Shown in pieces: positions 4,864 through 17,766 of a stretch of DNA of 64,000 nt; within the stretch, counting starts at the first letter, position 1; every line of letters begins with the position of its first letter. A program made the position numbers and the translations under genes. The stretch is from an uncultured Actinomycetota bacterium. GTDB lineage: Bacteria; Actinomycetota; UBA4738. The notes below the pieces were generated by a model, which saw only the letters and a program-made list of their open reading frames with translations, was not told where the DNA came from and did no database searches. The stretch is from NCBI GenBank assembly GCA_963781595.1, contig CAWAGG010000006.1, forward strand, positions 2,626,923 to 2,690,922, written 5' to 3'.

Positions 4864-5250
4864 TCAGCCATCCGGCCCGTGCGGGTTCGGCCGGTCCTGT
4901 CCCAGCACCACGGCCGTGGCGAACTGGATCGCGGCGAGCGCCAGCGGCACCATCACGTACCAACGGAAGGCCTGTGGGTCGTCCACCAGCGCGTAGCCCG
5001 CGAAGAGGCCGGCGAACGCGAACCACATCCCGACCCTCGCCGTGACGTGCAACGCGTAGAGCACCGTCTCGCCGGTCGAGGCGGGCCGGAACCCCTTCCG
5101 TTGCCAGTGAACCAGCGAACGCACCCCGACGACCACCAGCGCGGCGGCGACGGCGAGGGCCACGATGTCGACGGTGTCCAGGTGCTTCGCGGTCGCAACC
5201 ACCCCGCGCGGGACGGCCCGGACCGCGCCTCCCAGGAGCCCGGACGTCAC
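4864..5250 (-). CDS. Small integral membrane protein (128 aa)
   Basis: The GTG at 5250 overlaps the upstream stop (GTGA). Hydrophobic helices (IVALAVAAALVVVGV, VGMWFAFAGLFAGYALV, VMVPLALAAIQFATAVVL). The longer Arg-rich N-terminus in the ORF track was rejected. Confidence 0.6.
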   Translation of the reverse strand: MTSGLLGGAVRAVPRGVVATAKHLDTVDIVALAVAAALVVVGVRSLVHWQRKGFRPASTGETVLYALHVTARVGMWFAFAGLFAGYALVDDPQAFRWYVMVPLALAAIQFATAVVLGQDRPNPHGPDG

Positions 5251-6146
5251 GCATCCCCCCCGGCCGCGGCGCGGAGCAGCGCGACGACGCGTTCGTCGCT
5301 CACCTGTCCGAACTCCAGGTACCACTGGCCGACCGCGTAGAAATGGGACGGCGTCACCAGGATCTCGACCCGGTCGCACTCGCGCTCGAGCCGCCCGACC
5401 GCCTCCACCGGGGCGACAGGGGCCGCGAACATCACCTCCCGCGCACCCGCGCGGCGGGCCCAGCGCAGGGCGGCCACAGCGGTGCCGCCGGTCGCCACGC
5501 CGTCGTCCACGACGGCCGCGGTTCGGCCCTCGACCTGCACCGGAGGACGCCCGTCACGGTAGGCCGCCGTCCGTCGCCTGATCTCCTCCTCCTGGCGTTC
5601 GATCTCGCGCGCAAGGTAGTCGGCGGAGACGCCGAGCGTGGCGATCAGGCGATCGTCCAGGACCCGGACGTTCTCGGCGATCGCGCCCAACCCAAGCTCC
5701 GGATTGCCCGGCGCGCCGAGCTTGCGCGGGATCACGACGTCGAGCGGCAACCCGAGGCGAACCGCGATCACGGCCGCGACCTCGACGCCGCCGCGCGGGA
5801 TCGCCAACACGACCGAGTCCTCGGGCAGGACGTCGCCGAGCGCCTGCGCCAGGAACTCGCCCGCCTCGACCCGGTCGCGGAACGACGACGTCGGCGACCA
5901 GGGGAACCGCGGCCCGGGGTTCGCGGGCGGTTGGTCGGGCGGATCCGGCTGCGTTCCGCCCGCCGCCACTGGCGGGACCGTCAGCGCGTCGTCGATCTGG
6001 CGTTCGGCGTCCTCGTCGTCGACCTCTCGGCGACGGTCCGGCTGGACGCGCTCCGGAGGAGGCATCGGCTTGCGGATCCGGCGGTAGGGCTCGAGGCGGT
6101 CGCCCGAGCCGCGGCGCCGGCTTCGGTTCCCTTCGTCGCCAGCCAT
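5247..6146 (-). CDS. Phosphoribosyltransferase-family protein with a roughly 85-aa charged/Pro-rich N-terminal extension
   Basis: VVLAIPRGGVEVAAVIA..., PRPP loop AAVVDDGVATGGTAVAA. There is no in-frame start closer to the conserved FRDRVEAG core. Confidence 0.85.
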   Translation of the reverse strand: MAGDEGNRSRRRGSGDRLEPYRRIRKPMPPPERVQPDRRREVDDEDAERQIDDALTVPPVAAGGTQPDPPDQPPANPGPRFPWSPTSSFRDRVEAGEFLAQALGDVLPEDSVVLAIPRGGVEVAAVIAVRLGLPLDVVIPRKLGAPGNPELGLGAIAENVRVLDDRLIATLGVSADYLAREIERQEEEIRRRTAAYRDGRPPVQVEGRTAAVVDDGVATGGTAVAALRWARRAGAREVMFAAPVAPVEAVGRLERECDRVEILVTPSHFYAVGQWYLEFGQVSDERVVALLRAAAGGDA

Positions 6147-13154: not shown

Positions 13155-13682
13155 GTGAGCGACCAGACGATCCGACCCGCCTACAGCATGTGGCCCCAGT
13201 ACAACCAGCGCCTCCGCGACGTCATCGCGGCGATGACCGACGAGCAGCTGGCGATCACGGTCCTGGGTCACGGCCCAGGCGGAACACCCGAACGATGGCC
13301 GATCTGGGCGACCGTGGGCCACACCGCCTGCCAGCGGGTGTTCTGGCTCTGCGATTTCCTCGGCGAGCCGGGCGCGGACACGACGCCGTTCACGAACGCC
13401 GCGTACGACTGCCCGGGGGACGACGACCTGGAGCACGTGCTGGGCGCCGAGCAGCTCGTCGAGGGCCTCGATTCGTCCTTCCGCATCGTCGAGGACTGCC
13501 TCGACCGATGGAGCCTGGACTTGCTCACCGAAGAGATCCGGCGCCCGGACTTCGGCGACGATTGGGTGCACACCCGCGGCTCGGTCCTCCAGCGGGTCTT
13601 CAGCCACGACGTCTACCACTGCGGCGAGCTGTCGCAGACGCTCGGCGTCGCCGGTCTGCCGCAGATCGATCTCTGGGACTGA
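13155..13682 (+). CDS. DinB-family protein
   Basis: YNQRLRDVIAAMTDEQL...VFSHDVYHCGELSQTLG. GTG start. Confidence 0.8.
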   Translation: MSDQTIRPAYSMWPQYNQRLRDVIAAMTDEQLAITVLGHGPGGTPERWPIWATVGHTACQRVFWLCDFLGEPGADTTPFTNAAYDCPGDDDLEHVLGAEQLVEGLDSSFRIVEDCLDRWSLDLLTEEIRRPDFGDDWVHTRGSVLQRVFSHDVYHCGELSQTLGVAGLPQIDLWD

Positions 13683-13707
13683 GTCCACGCTCGGTGACGC
13701 CGGTGAG

Positions 13708-14673
13708 GTGCTGACGTTGACGGAGGTTCCCTCCCAAGAGGAGCTCGAAGTCGCCCACTGCTGGGAGCCCGAAGACCGGGTGCCGGGGCGGCCCGAGATG
13801 ACGGGGTTCCGCAGGCTGCTGCGCTACCACCAGTCGCGGTGGCGCGAGGCGCACGGGCACCCGATCGGTACCCAGCCGATCGTGCCGGCGGCCGGGAAGC
13901 CGTCGCGCCTCGTCGGGAGCCGCCTCCCGCTCGCGTACGCCCGGGAGACCGGCGCGAACCTGATCACCTCCGGCGCGCTCGACGCTGCGTGGGCCCGAAC
14001 GTCCTTCATCGAGCCGCACCAGAGCTTCGATCACCAGCGGCTGTGGGCCGACCTCCTATGGTCGACGACGATGGCCTTCAATCTCTTCGGCGACCTGGCC
14101 GCCGACCTGGGGCTCGCCGACCGGGCGGTCCACGCCTGGTGGCCGGACGCGCCGGGCCCCGTGTCCCAGGTTCTCTTCGAGCATTCCCCAGGGTGGCTCG
14201 ACCATGCCTACCTCGGGAACCTCAGCTCGTTCGATGCGGCGTTCGTGCTCGACCTCGGCGACGGCACGCGAGGGATCATCGGACTCGACACCAGGTACCA
14301 GGAGCGGACCAAGCCGGAGATCCCGAAGCCGAGGAACCTCCCGCGGTACCTCGAGGTCGCCGAGCGGTCGGGCGCCTTCGCGGCGGGGACGACCGCCGCG
14401 GTCGAGGGGAGGTCCGATCTCGCCGTGATGTGGCTCGAGCACCTCCTGGTGCTGTCGATGCTCCAACATCCCAGCGGCGCGTGGAGCTGGGGCCGCTACG
14501 TCGTGGTCCGCCCCGCCGGCAACTCGGACTACGCCGACGCCTGCGACCGGTACGGAGATCTGCTCGCGGACCGTTCGACATTCTCCACGATGACCGTCGA
14601 GGAACTCCTCGAGGCCGAGGTCCTGCCGGCACCCACGGCCACAGCGCTGCGCGAACGGTACATCCCCCACTGA
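13708..14673 (+). CDS. Hypothetical protein (321 aa), possibly with a PD-(D/E)XK nuclease-like fold
   Basis: Long ORF with high GC3. The segments LWADLLWSTTMAFNLFGDL and FDAAFVLDLGDGTRGIIGLDTRYQE resemble the layout of restriction-endonuclease-like families. The start (GTG 13708) is uncertain. Confidence 0.65.
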   Translation: MLTLTEVPSQEELEVAHCWEPEDRVPGRPEMTGFRRLLRYHQSRWREAHGHPIGTQPIVPAAGKPSRLVGSRLPLAYARETGANLITSGALDAAWARTSFIEPHQSFDHQRLWADLLWSTTMAFNLFGDLAADLGLADRAVHAWWPDAPGPVSQVLFEHSPGWLDHAYLGNLSSFDAAFVLDLGDGTRGIIGLDTRYQERTKPEIPKPRNLPRYLEVAERSGAFAAGTTAAVEGRSDLAVMWLEHLLVLSMLQHPSGAWSWGRYVVVRPAGNSDYADACDRYGDLLADRSTFSTMTVEELLEAEVLPAPTATALRERYIPH

Positions 14674-14715
14674 CGCCGACCCGCCCCCGGTCCGTGGATC
14701 CGAGCCCTCCCAGGA

Positions 14716-15420
14716 TCACACCATCGCCGCGGACGGCAGTCCTTCGGTGATGTGAGACGGCTTGAACCCCTTGACCATGAGGTAGATCCCGAGCGACAGC
14801 TCCCAGAAGAACTCCGGGATCGTCGCGATGACCTGCACTCCGGACCCTGGCTCGATCACGTCGAACAGGACGAGGGTCCCCGACAGGATGATCAGCGGAC
14901 CTCCGATCAGCCCCAGCGTCGCCATGCCGCGTGGCACGAGGCCGGATCGGTACATCAGGTAGCCCAGGATCAACCCGTTCCCGAGACCGACGACCCAGCC
15001 GGGCCCGAGCAGGAACGTCCAGTCGTGGATCGCAACGAGCGACCTGCCGGCGATGACGACCGAGCTCGCGCCGGAGGCCCCGACGTCCTGGCGCAACGTC
15101 ACGACGGCGAGGAGGCTGAGGATGCCGGCGGCGATGAAGACGCTTTCCATGACACGGGCGGTGACATAACCGAGCGCGAGGCTTTCGTTCTGCCGCTTGA
15201 GGATCGGGAACAGCACGACGGCCGTACCGATGTTGGCGACGATGAGGATCATCTCGAGGAACGCTCCGAGAGCGACGCGGTTGTCGGCGCCGGCTCCGAT
15301 GACGTAGTCGGGATGGTCCAGCACCACGTTGTAGAGCGCCAGCGCAGACGGGATGCTGACCACGAACGTGATGATGAAGAGCAGACCTACGACGAACGCG
15401 GTCCTTCTCAATGGGTTCAC
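14716..15420 (-). CDS. DUF4386-family integral membrane protein
   Basis: VNPLRRTAFVVGLLFIITFVVSIPSALALYNVVLDHPDYV... with multiple TM helices. GTG at 15420 is chosen because GGAAGGAG lies 5 nt upstream; the TTG at 15447 is the ORF-track start. Confidence 0.8.
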   Translation of the reverse strand: MNPLRRTAFVVGLLFIITFVVSIPSALALYNVVLDHPDYVIGAGADNRVALGAFLEMILIVANIGTAVVLFPILKRQNESLALGYVTARVMESVFIAAGILSLLAVVTLRQDVGASGASSVVIAGRSLVAIHDWTFLLGPGWVVGLGNGLILGYLMYRSGLVPRGMATLGLIGGPLIILSGTLVLFDVIEPGSGVQVIATIPEFFWELSLGIYLMVKGFKPSHITEGLPSAAMV

Positions 15421-15861
15421 GGGCACTCCTTCCGGTCGATCGATCAACGACGCAGGGCCGCCGTACGGCGTTCAGCCACACCTCCTCATCCGGCGCTCAG
15501 CGGTTCGGTGCACCCGGCGGTGCAGGGAGGGCAAACCGGTCGCGCCTCCGATGGGCCGTGAGGCGATCGGTCGCGTCTTCGGCTCACATGGGCGCGGAAG
15601 CGCCGGCGTCCATGCGCTGAGCGTGATGCCGGACATCCCGGTCTCCTCGGATCCATGCCGTCGCGATGGCGACGGAAGCGCCGAACCGGGAGTTAGGGCC
15701 AGGATGGGACCGCCGCGAGGCTGGGGCTGTCCGCGCCGCCACGGTAACACCCATCGGGCCGGCGCTGCTCGATGGCCATCCCGATCGACGAGGAGGAGCG
15801 CGGGTCGAAGGTGAGCGGTCGCCGTCCCCTTCGACGACGCGACCTTCTCCTCACGCGAGCG

Positions 15862-16137
15862 TCAGCTCGGATCTGGGGTCGCTCGTCGGCCCGACGTCAT
15901 CGCGCCTCGGGCGGACCGGAACGAGAGCATCGACCAACGGCTCAGCGCGGACAGGATCGAGCCCACGCTGCCGAACGACCCGATCGAGCCGATCGAGAAC
16001 GCCGAACCGATCGAGCCGATCGACAGGAACGAGCCCACCGAGCCGATCGACAGGGCTGAGTTCGTCGACGCGACCGACAGGAACGAACCGTTCGACCAGA
16101 GAGACCACCGCGACGCAGCCGCCACGACGCCCATCAT
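15862..16137 (-). CDS. Small repeat protein (91 aa) with Ser at every third position for 23 triplets (SIGSxGS core)
   Basis: MMGVVAAASRWSLWSNGSFLSVASTNSALSIGSVGSFLSIGSIGSAFSIGSIGSFGSVGSILSALSRWSMLSFRSARGAMTSGRRATPDPS. By hand count about 80 of 91 codons end in G/C, clearly higher than the three overlapping alternative frames. Confidence 0.55.
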   Translation of the reverse strand: MMGVVAAASRWSLWSNGSFLSVASTNSALSIGSVGSFLSIGSIGSAFSIGSIGSFGSVGSILSALSRWSMLSFRSARGAMTSGRRATPDPS

Positions 16138-16179
16138 GACGCCTGCGGACAGCGTGCGCCGCGGCGCTCTACCCCGGTG

Positions 16180-16734
16180 TCAGCTGGCCGCCTTCATCGG
16201 CTCCTTCGGCTCGACCCACATCAGGTCCGGATGGAAGTCGTACCCCCACGGGAGCCCCGCGTTCTTCCAGCCATTCCTCATATGCTTGCCGAAGTAGACG
16301 CTCCCGCGATCGTCGACCCGGTCCCCTTCGAAGCCGTTGATGATGTTGTACGCGTGCGTGAAGCCGGCCTTCGTGAGCAGGTCGATCGCCATCGCGGCAC
16401 GGCCCCCGGTCGCGCACATCACCAGGATCGTGTCGTCGGTGCCGAACGCCTCCTCCACCTTCGTGACGAAGTCCGGATTCGCCTCGCCGGAACAGCCCGG
16501 CGGCCTGCCCGGCATGGAGGGGCCCTCCGGGTCGAACTTCGGGAATACCAGCGGGACGTTCTTCGCCATCTCGACGTGGCCGCCGAACACGTACTCCTCG
16601 AACGTTCGCACGTCGAGGATGTGGACGTGGTCGGGATCCGCCTTCCACATGTCGTAGGCCTCGTACGGCGTCGCGTAGAGCCCCAAGGTCGTGCGGTTCG
16701 CCTCGGGCACTTCGGGAACGGATGTCGTCGCCAT
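16180..16734 (-). CDS. Rhodanese-domain sulfurtransferase-like protein
   Basis: HILDVRTFEEYVFGGHV..., active-site loop VMCATGGRAAMA. ATG at 16734 has a GGAGGAGGAG RBS. Confidence 0.9.
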   Translation of the reverse strand: MATTSVPEVPEANRTTLGLYATPYEAYDMWKADPDHVHILDVRTFEEYVFGGHVEMAKNVPLVFPKFDPEGPSMPGRPPGCSGEANPDFVTKVEEAFGTDDTILVMCATGGRAAMAIDLLTKAGFTHAYNIINGFEGDRVDDRGSVYFGKHMRNGWKNAGLPWGYDFHPDLMWVEPKEPMKAAS

Positions 16735-16886
16735 GATCGTGTCTCCTCCTCCCTCGTGCTCCCCTAGCCGAGCCGCAGGTGCATCGACTCTTCCAGCGGG
16801 ACCGGCTCTGGGAGCTTGGCCATGCTGCGCTTCGTTCGCCCTTTGGGGGTGATGGCTCCACGAGCGCCGAGCGCTTGGATGGCCAC

Positions 16887-17279
16887 ATGGAGCGTCGCGT
16901 CGGATCGACGGTGTCGGTCGAAGCCCACGAGTGGACGCTGACGAAGCTCGCGCTGAACGACGACCGACTGATCGCGAACCTGACCGAGTCGGACGCGGCG
17001 AACCTCGAAGCCTCGGGGTTGGATCGCCGGGCCCACGCGCTGGTTCGGATCGGCGCTCTACTGGCGCTGGACGCCGCCCCGGCGTCGTACGCGTCCGTCG
17101 TTCGGCTCGCGCAGCGCGCGGGGGTTTCCGCGCCCGAGATCGTCGGGGTGCTCGTCGCCGTGGCCCCGTACATCGGGATCGCGCGCACGGTCTCGGCGGC
17201 CCCCGAGCTGGCCCTCGCGGTCGGCTTCGACGTGGACGACGTGATCGAGCGGGACCGCGACGAGGCCGACGGAGCCTGA
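16887..17279 (+). CDS. Carboxymuconolactone decarboxylase (AhpD-like) family protein
   Basis: RRAHALVRIGALLALDAAPASYASVVRLAQRAGVSAPEIVGVLVAVAPYIG. The start is uncertain (ATG 16887 versus GTG 16779). Confidence 0.75.
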   Translation: MERRVGSTVSVEAHEWTLTKLALNDDRLIANLTESDAANLEASGLDRRAHALVRIGALLALDAAPASYASVVRLAQRAGVSAPEIVGVLVAVAPYIGIARTVSAAPELALAVGFDVDDVIERDRDEADGA

Positions 17280-17364
17280 AGGCCGGGTGAGGCCGGTCCG
17301 TCCGAGGGCCGGCCAGCTTCGGCCGTTGCTGCGCCTCGGCAGCTCGTAGTACGGTCCGGGGCCC

Positions 17365-17766
17365 TTGGACCGCAGCATCCCGATCGGTGAGGCCGCCCAG
17401 GCGCTGGGGGTCAGCCTCGACACCCTGCGCCGGTGGGAGCGCCAGGGCCGGATCCGCACCGAGCGCGACGAACGGAACCGCCGGCTGATCCCGGAGAGCG
17501 AGATCACCCGCCTCGGCGGGCGTCTTCCGTCGCACAGCGGCACCGGGTTCTCCGCGAGGAACCGGTTCGAAGGTGTGGTCACGGCCGTCGAGGTCTCAGG
17601 CGTCGTCGCCCTCGTCGAGATCCAGGCCGGCCCGCACCGGATCGTCTCGGTGATCACCCGCGACGCGGTTCAGGAGTTGGGTCTCGCGCCAGGCGTCCCG
17701 GCCGTCGCGACCGTCAAGGCCACCTCCGTCATCGTTCAGCGGGCGCGAGACGAACCGCACCACTGA
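17365..17766 (+). CDS. MerR/excisionase-type HTH fused to a TOBE (molybdate-binding-like) domain regulator
   Basis: IGEAAQALGVSLDTLRRWERQGRI..., then SARNRFEGVVTAVEVSGVVALVEIQAG...ATVKATSVIV. TTG start. Confidence 0.8.
   Translation: MDRSIPIGEAAQALGVSLDTLRRWERQGRIRTERDERNRRLIPESEITRLGGRLPSHSGTGFSARNRFEGVVTAVEVSGVVALVEIQAGPHRIVSVITRDAVQELGLAPGVPAVATVKATSVIVQRARDEPHH

Follow-up and report, generated by a model that had tools for sequence, protein, structure and literature searches.

A protein with serine at every third residue in an uncultured actinomycetotal bacterium belongs to a large, unnamed family

What kind of protein, if any, is made from a gene whose translation carries serine at every third residue over most of its length? 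The question is raised by a small open reading frame (ORF) on the minus strand of a 64-kb stretch of contig CAWAGG010000006.1 (the window), assembled from an uncultured bacterium of the Actinomycetota. A first-pass annotation of the window quoted the translation of this ORF, which we reproduced exactly, and placed serine in a single register for 23 triplets without a break, as we also find (Table 1). With all six frames of the 64 kb compared, the runners-up among runs of one residue at period 3 are arginine at 10 and serine at 6 consecutive positions, so the register is far beyond chance. The observation raises three questions: (i) whether the serine frame is the one that is translated, (ii) whether the protein belongs to a described family, and (iii) what structure such a repeat could adopt.

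Addressing the first question, we consider it close to certain that the small gene is genuine and coding in the serine frame. The first-pass annotation had chosen this frame by its G+C content at codon position 3 (GC3). Four listed ORFs do overlap the repeat, and among them the choice holds: the serine ORF has G+C contents at positions 1, 2, and 3 of 0.47/0.67/0.87, and the other three have GC3 values of 0.56-0.69. As a general argument it fails. An antisense shadow frame on the plus strand (EPIEPIDRNEPTEPID, reading EPIEPID...) is open across 15913-16113 with a GC3 of 0.92, versus 0.93 for the serine frame there, and its mean GC3 across 81 related loci is 0.86, the same as that of the serine frame. 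Because the two are equal, GC3 is unable to choose between them. The shadow frame is open in 69 of these 81 loci, and an antisense ORF of at least 70 aa occurs in 48 of 84 loci of related genomes, making it a trap for gene finders in high-GC genomes.

The frame call itself stands on the substitution pattern across 81-143 related loci. The serine frame is open in 81 of 81 loci; the shadow frame is closed in 12 and has no start codon in the window. Over 27 gap-free codons outside the motif used for retrieval, entropy at codon positions 1, 2, and 3 is 0.62, 0.39, and 1.40 bits. That position 2 is conserved best is what the serine frame predicts and its complement does not. Mean pairwise ratios of nonsynonymous to synonymous differences (pN/pS), the comparison suggested in the first pass, are lowest in the serine frame (0.39), higher in its shadow (0.64), and 1.1-2.5 in the remaining four, so constraint in the relatives is strongest on the serine frame and not on another. 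Of the 1,536 serine codons of the register in the genome set, 1,411 are TCN and 125 are AGY, the latter spread over 61 of the 81 loci; an independently retrieved metagenome set has 981 TCN and 165 AGY codons among 1,146. A switch between TCN and AGY preserves serine, yet it would turn Asp or Glu of the shadow frame into Leu. The window ORF itself uses AGC at two register positions, beside TCG (16), TCC (2), TCT, and TCA. One member lies on a contig of only 52.7% GC, where a Shine-Dalgarno sequence is present and the serine frame is the sole open forward frame. At the DNA level, Tandem Repeats Finder reports degenerate periods of 9, 27, and 36 nt, and the consensus GCCGATCGA contains a palindrome. 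A repeat maintained as DNA is at odds with a self-similarity of just 67-68%, and the nonrepeated caps and the C-terminal anchor described below exist in the serine frame only.

Addressing the second question, a search of 5.8 billion proteins returned 319 homologues at E<=0.01, all labelled 'hypothetical' and none with a Pfam domain; the Pfam column is blank for all 120 homologues listed. A profile search of 1.84 billion representatives found 1,205 clusters at E<=1e-3, a minimum given for clusters defined at 50% identity, and 577 at E<=1e-10. The register of S-x-x triplets is conserved across this actinomycetotal family, which answers the homologue search proposed with the first annotation. We also scanned species-representative genomes with the motif SRWSLWSx[DG]S, taken from a trimmed alignment of the N-terminal cap, and confirmed 118 loci. 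The carriers are Acidimicrobiia, Thermoleophilia, Euzebyaceae, and Actinomycetes (Streptomyces, Blastococcus, Modestobacter, Jatrophihabitans, Nocardioidaceae, Pseudonocardiales, and Streptosporangiaceae), together with one Candidatus Aeolococcus bin and one cyanobacterial bin. The cyanobacterial case is the member on the 52.7% GC contig (L074, positions 4995-5327), which has a C-terminal anchor as well as the Shine-Dalgarno sequence and was binned as Kovacikia; the gene was either transferred horizontally from Actinomycetota or binned there as a contaminant. The 91-aa product of the window was absent from the protein collection by exact look-up. The best metagenome matches to it share no more than 74% identity over a short segment, or 68% when nearly full-length, and no syntenic orthologue of the locus was found there.

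No model in Pfam, NCBIfam, PHROGs, or PADLOC covers the family, and the sole signal from these libraries is a sub-threshold match to HxsA4. A Pfam scan of the window protein returned nothing at E<=1. A sequence profile search of the Protein Data Bank (PDB) matched only artificial (TGS)n linkers and FG-type nucleoporin or low-complexity segments, and a literature text search with the motif strings and the wording 'Ser-X-X repeat' found no relevant paper. Searches of phage and plasmid collections with tblastn gave no match, which is weak evidence, as the query was possibly masked by the low-complexity filter. Proteins of 200-384 aa were considered as domain fusions and rejected: their N-terminal parts look like over-extended ORFs, and their sole Pfam domain is one PG_binding_4 match in a probable frame-merged call. 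The first-pass remark that the family is unfamiliar thus holds for the curated libraries and for the literature text search. Judged from these searches, this is a large, unnamed, and undescribed family, widespread in soil Actinomycetota, with a repeat type that matches no catalogued class.

The members share a simple architecture. A variable and often very short N terminus is followed by a cap, S-R-W-S-L-W-S-x-D, then by about seven nonapeptide units of the form S-x-L-S-I-G-S-V-G, and a second cap, S-R-W-S-x-L-S-x-R-S, closes the repeat. The SRWS(L/M) motifs that had been noticed on both sides of the window repeat are therefore caps conserved across the family. The earlier reading of the core as hexapeptide units was wrong: identity between non-serine positions is 0.37 at a lag of 9 residues versus 0.18 at a lag of 6, and the super-period is nine residues. 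Most members have 20-24 triplets, and in a 40-sequence alignment the core gaps are blocks of 9, 18, or 27 residues. Positions 2 and 3 of the triplets are occupied by V/I/A/L/F and G/L/A, with position-specific preferences; specifically, position 3 is Leu in 99% at triplet 4 and Gly in 97% at triplet 9. Because the triplet number is narrowly distributed, positions have preferences, caps are kept, and gaps fall in whole units, we take the core to be a defined structure and not low-complexity filler. The inner core is only 2% charged. Measured as the longest run of uncharged residues, the family median is 47 (quartiles 41-50) and the window protein has 56.

The register position is Ser in 96.3%, Ala in 2.2%, Cys in 0.9%, Gly in 0.2%, and Thr in 0.1% of cases. 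Thr is reachable by mutation as easily as Ala, and its exclusion speaks for a steric or hydrogen-bonding role of Ser rather than for hydroxyl chemistry. In 117 of 221 representatives (53%), the repeat is followed by a hydrophobic helix within the last ~30 residues and then by a cluster of Arg, with no signal peptide, the pattern of a tail anchor. The window protein lacks this pattern and falls with the 49 of 221 (22%) whose tail is no longer than 25 residues. Nor is a hydrophobic anchor hidden downstream of the window ORF in any of the three sense (minus-strand) frames.

Table 1. Parts of the serine-repeat gene and its probable start signals, in window coordinates
Feature	Position	Strand	Remarks
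Small Ser-x-x repeat protein, ORF as first called	15862..16137	minus	ATG start, 91 aa plus TGA stop
Repeat core, 23 Ser-x-x triplets	15913..16113	minus	residues 9-75, 67 aa, nonapeptide super-period
N-terminal cap SRWSLWS	16093..16113	minus	kept at repeat start family-wide
C-terminal cap SRWSMLSFRS	15913..15942	minus	family consensus at repeat end SRWS-x-L-S-x-RS
Short basic tail ARGAMTSGRRATPDPS	15865..15912	minus	no hydrophobic anchor; short-tail class
-10-like hexamer CATGAT (ANNNT type)	16133..16138	minus	7 nt upstream of GTG; several relatives share CATGAT
Probable leaderless start GTG	16123..16125	minus	87-aa product M-AAASRWSLWS...; suggested by hexamer spacing

The translation start of the window gene probably differs from the one first called. 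The 42 nt reported between the stop codon of the rhodanese gene (16180-16182) and the ATG at 16137 were counted correctly. No Shine-Dalgarno sequence precedes this ATG, and a CATGAT hexamer lies 7 nt before the GTG downstream; for these two reasons an 87-aa product from its own promoter is favoured. A hexamer directly before the start codon is the arrangement of leaderless actinobacterial mRNAs. Across the family, a [TC]ANNNT hexamer stands 5-8 nt (mostly 6-7) before a candidate start just ahead of the cap at 50 of the 81 genome loci and at 23 of the 54 metagenome loci, with an expected rate of ~6% calculated from all ATG and GTG codons in the same loci. From this spacing, the true start is probably the GTG at 16125, read from a leaderless transcript, and the first ATGATG probably belongs to the -10 box rather than being the start. 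Scans of the locus for consensus promoters and terminators and for Rfam families gave no match. In the four Streptomyces genome loci (L035, L052, L054, and L059; about 5001-5300 in each), the common N terminus is MSKHDA[ND]SRWSLWS and a TAC[CG]AT hexamer precedes the ATG by 6 nt, suggesting that a leaderless promoter is conserved in this genus.

Addressing the third question, we looked at periodicity, covariation, and predicted structure. Spectra of hydropathy and side-chain volume are dominated by a peak at 120 degrees, with no power at the alpha-helical 100 degrees and little at the 160-180 degrees of beta structure. Covariation was measured as mutual information with average product correction (MI-APC) in 185 sequences of at most 85% identity, aligned over 48 gap-free residues and strictly anchored at the N-terminal cap. 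Mean MI-APC is 0.056 at a separation of 9 and between -0.03 and 0.02 at all other separations from 2 to 30; this baseline includes 6, 18, and 27 as well as the helical separations 3, 4, and 7. Shuffling of columns gives 0.001 +/- 0.004. Most of the coupled columns are the x of S-x-L in neighbouring units, and each of three length classes, taken over the full core, repeats the enrichment at 9. At lag 9 the identity of synonymous codons rises only slightly (0.436 for Ser versus about 0.41), so recent duplication of units is not the cause of this coupling.

To explain these features we favour a capped, self-associating, beta-type stack of nonapeptides, a structural hypothesis to which we would give a little less than an even chance. 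Fixed length, caps, position-specific conservation, and coupling of neighbouring units speak for an ordered repeat with contacts between adjacent nonapeptides. The composition speaks for an order that needs self-association, as does the absence of a folded core in the monomer predictions described below. In outline, the gene would be transcribed independently, probably as a leaderless mRNA, and its core would be a structural repeat of fixed length, with about seven nonapeptides held between Arg/Trp-rich caps. Adjacent nonapeptides would pack together as a solenoid, roll, or meander, with the small, invariant side chains of Ser hydrogen-bonded in sterically tight places and the exposed aliphatic residues driving self-association. 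In about half of the family the C-terminal anchor would tether the domain to the cytoplasmic membrane; the anchorless window copy would lack this tether. Such a protein would be structural or scaffolding, and neither an enzyme nor the precursor of a modified peptide, and it would be functionally unlinked to the rhodanese encoded next to it.

Several observations weigh against this beta-type stack. The structure prediction proposed in the first pass was made with AlphaFold2 for monomers only, with 83-121 homologues, and did not fold the core. For the window protein (121 sequences), the mean predicted local distance difference test score (pLDDT) is 52, residues 5-42 are below 50, no strands appear, and a low-confidence helix covers residues 55-84, in the C-terminal third. 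For an anchored member (P0039) the mean pLDDT is 57, and the sole confident part is the C-terminal helix at residues 111-135 (pLDDT 89-96). Beta-solenoids are usually well predicted by AlphaFold2. We know of no beta-solenoid with a rung as short as 9 residues, and a roll with 18 residues per turn should couple at a separation of 18, where no signal is seen. Another possible source of the coupling at 9 is older turnover of repeat units that no longer shows at synonymous sites, synonymous divergence (pS) between members being about 0.56. Finally, an uncharged core of 41-50 residues flanked by Arg and Trp, with Kyte-Doolittle maxima over 19 residues near 1.5, would suit a hairpin in the membrane too.

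Known beta-type repeats offer partial likenesses to the family. The nonapeptide beta-roll motif of RTX proteins is GGxGxDxUx. Like it, the serine repeat is a tandem nonapeptide in which two small residues keep the spacing of G1 and G4 (G-S-V-G-S-x-L-S-I), and its units could pack face to face. It differs in having no Asp or other position for binding Ca2+, in its nearly uncharged inner core, and in the absence of a Pfam match. The position that points inward and is hydrophobic in RTX rolls is Ser here, and the outward positions are Leu or Ile; AlphaFold2 builds no roll. Membership was therefore rejected: the nonapeptide unit is present, and the Ca2+ turn and the profile match are not. The hexapeptide repeat Hexapep (PF00132) has an aliphatic-Gly-x-x-small-x pattern that can be mapped onto I-G-S-V-G-S, but the period is 9 and not 6, there is no match of its hidden Markov model at E<=1, and no strands are predicted. 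The left-handed beta-helix suggested by the first-pass annotation gained no support, given these points, the lag identities above, and the lack of covariation at 6 or 18. The Ser-lined oligomeric or membrane structure also suggested there is still a candidate.

The strongest competitor of the beta-type stack, in our view unlikely but deserving of attention, is an alpha-helical hairpin or oligomer embedded in the membrane. The core of ~47 residues would span the bilayer twice with the Arg/Trp caps at the interface, and the small residues would pack helices in the manner of a Ser/Gly zipper, perhaps forming a pore or otherwise altering the membrane. The length of the uncharged stretch and its R/W/D-containing flanks suit this well, as do a median Kyte-Doolittle maximum of 1.53 for the core over 19 residues, which is like that of the C-terminal anchor helices, the constraint on core length, the low-confidence AlphaFold2 helices in the C-terminal part of the core, and the further hydrophobic helix in half of the family. 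An exact period of 3, however, is meaningless on an alpha-helix, and the hydropathy spectrum has no power at 100 degrees. Covariation is likewise missing at 3, 4, and 7, and its specific peak at 9 would join residues on opposite faces of a helix. With one-third Ser and abundant Gly, insertion would cost about +4 kcal/mol per 19 residues (scale values of Hessa et al.), and the Arg cluster of the tail-anchored variants would end up outside the cell. Small tail-anchored proteins of the ElaB/YqjD/YgaM type resemble the anchored half of the family, with an extreme C-terminal helix, a few Arg after it, and no signal peptide. They have no sequence relationship to it; the cytoplasmic part of the family is the Ser-x-x repeat, and the window copy has no anchor.

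Next in rank, and quite improbable, is an extended rod with three residues per turn, of the polyproline-II or collagen type, made of several chains with Ser in the role that Gly has in collagen and with the caps registering the chains or nucleating the assembly. The unbroken triplets with a near-invariant small residue, core gaps in whole multiples of three residues, and the dominant 120-degree peak in both hydropathy and volume are what such a rod would show. A composition of Ser, Gly, and beta-branched residues favours extended conformations, and the low-confidence coil of the AlphaFold2 monomer is as expected of an obligate multi-chain helix. These are also the points of resemblance to bacterial collagens and the snow-flea antifreeze protein. 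Set against them, the invariant residue is Ser, and Gly at the register is nearly absent; Ser at the axis is sterically incompatible with a canonical collagen triple helix. Pro is wholly absent, and the X and Y positions are aliphatic or Gly/Leu, so that large aliphatic side chains would cover the surface. Residues i and i+9 would be ~27 Å apart in one chain, which leaves the coupling at 9 unexplained. Membership in the collagen-like class was rejected, with the uninterrupted triplet register present and Gly at every third residue absent.

A similarly low probability applies to the reading ranked third, a low-complexity polypeptide, largely disordered or of elastomer or amyloid type, that acts by its bulk properties (phase separation, a surface film, or a functional amyloid). 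It would account for the unfolded core in AlphaFold2, for PDB matches confined to (TGS)n linkers and an FG-type nucleoporin segment, and for the uncharged Ser/Gly/aliphatic composition. It would not account for a fixed triplet number, position-specific preferences, and conserved caps, and neither a pN/pS of 0.39 nor a specific coupling of i with i+9 is expected when composition alone is selected. An ordered functional amyloid would overlap with the beta-type stack that we favour. Streptomyces chaplins and curli CsgA are the nearest examples, being small, rich in Gly, Ser, and aliphatic residues, and built of imperfect repeats with possible stacked beta rungs; the serine-repeat proteins have no secretion signal, no Pfam chaplin or curlin match, and no Gln/Asn ladders, and their unit is much shorter.

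Fourth, and very unlikely, is that the serines are substrates of modification, either by dehydration, cyclization, or radical S-adenosylmethionine (radical-SAM) chemistry in a ribosomally synthesized and post-translationally modified peptide (RiPP), or by poly-O-glycosylation or phosphorylation. The first-pass annotation had offered a modified peptide among its suggestions. The His-Xaa-Ser system was recently shown to act against phages, with two radical-SAM enzymes maturing its effector (PMC13128918), and its HxsA4 model (NF038313) is the only curated model to give any signal. HxsA4 proteins are also small with period-3 Ser, and weak matches, none of which reaches the cutoff, recur in 26 of 40 family members (best E 9.4e-6). 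Cys in the repeat of some members would also fit a modified peptide. The window protein scores 24.7 bits against a cutoff of 55, under half of what is required. HxsA has five HxS repeats versus the 20-24 triplets here, and His is absent from the window core, so that no triplet is His-Xaa-Ser. HxsA requires HxsB, HxsC, and HxsD and bears a peptidoglycan-binding domain (PMC13128918). Neither the HxsB/HxsC radical-SAM enzymes nor HxsD adjoin the gene in the window or in 7 annotated loci, the serine-repeat family has neither a peptidoglycan-binding domain nor a signal peptide, and its taxonomic range differs. Membership in HxsA4 was rejected on its score, the missing His, and the missing partners. 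More broadly, no modifying enzyme is linked in the window or the 7 annotated loci, and none recurs among neighbours in 84 loci, where nothing beyond clade-level synteny is recurrent; a RiPP precursor was rejected on this ground. There is no leader/core organization, a PADLOC search had no matches, and the near exclusion of Thr at the register with Ala and Cys tolerated points to size and not to hydroxyl chemistry. Ranked last is the idea that the serine ORF is not the product at all, with the antisense acidic frame as the gene or a noncoding DNA repeat rich in CGATCG palindromes in its place, which the frame evidence above makes extremely improbable.

The surroundings of the gene do not help to assign a function. 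Its neighbours in the window encode a rhodanese (PF00581, 4.8e-12), CMD, MerR-TOBE, a decarboxylase, a chromate transporter, GpsA, a DUF4386 membrane protein (PF14329, 4e-46), a PD-(D/E)XK nuclease, and DinB, and none of these suggests a partner. The first-pass annotation had placed the gene by its rhodanese and DUF4386 neighbours; neither is found near the gene in any of 148 other loci. Neighbours are different in each of the 7 annotated loci, and an all-against-all BLAST comparison of flanking ORFs from 84 loci recovered only abundant families at variable positions and clade-level synteny. The family is thus without a conserved neighbour, and the rhodanese and DUF4386 context is incidental.

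Other features of the segment were noted. The segment with the DUF4386, serine-repeat, and rhodanese genes (14600-16800) has a G+C content of 0.65-0.70 versus 0.71-0.76 in its flanks. The gap of roughly 440 bp reported before the DUF4386 gene is correct, at about 441 nt (15421-15861) to the likely start of that gene. This spacer is unusually long for a dense window of 71% GC; its six frames have GC3 values of 0.68-0.73 with no coding-like composition, and we found no Rfam match and no consensus promoter or terminator within it. The DUF4386 gene (minus strand) probably starts at the GTG at 15420, after GGAAGGAG and 5 nt, and the listed TTG at 15447 is improbable. Just past it, at 13155-14673, a PD-(D/E)XK nuclease (PF20796, with a REase-ARP match too) adjoins a DinB-family protein. 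On the other side, the 451-aa minus-strand ORF at 16180-17535 is an over-extension. The rhodanese proper runs from the ATG at 16734 behind the Shine-Dalgarno sequence GGGAGGAGGAG, and the upstream part of the ORF overlaps the plus-strand CMD (16779-17279) and MerR-TOBE (17365-17766) genes.

For the window, the practical outcome is a corrected gene model and a rhodanese neighbourhood that is functionally uninformative. The locus is also a clean example for the annotation of high-GC genomes, as it combines a shadow frame of equal GC3 with a likely leaderless start that is easily mis-called. The family merits a curated model even if its fold proves ordinary. Only a few tandem-repeat folds are known, among them collagen, beta-helices, RTX rolls, and pentapeptide repeats; they are well catalogued, and each new one has taught rules of chain packing and supplied materials or scaffolds. 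No known fold or function was matched here, and the serine repeat may be a new kind of protein repeat. That it is a new architecture, in the sense of a Ser-based, capped assembly of fixed length, built either as a tightly wound stack of 9-residue rungs or as a multi-chain rod with three residues per turn and no Gly, we regard as possible but doubtful. More than 1,000 clusters keep Ser at every third residue with collagen-like strictness, with a defined length and caps, yet they have no model, structure, name, or confident AlphaFold prediction. If the core proves to be an ordered assembly, the family would add a new class of repeat and mark a blind spot of current predictors.

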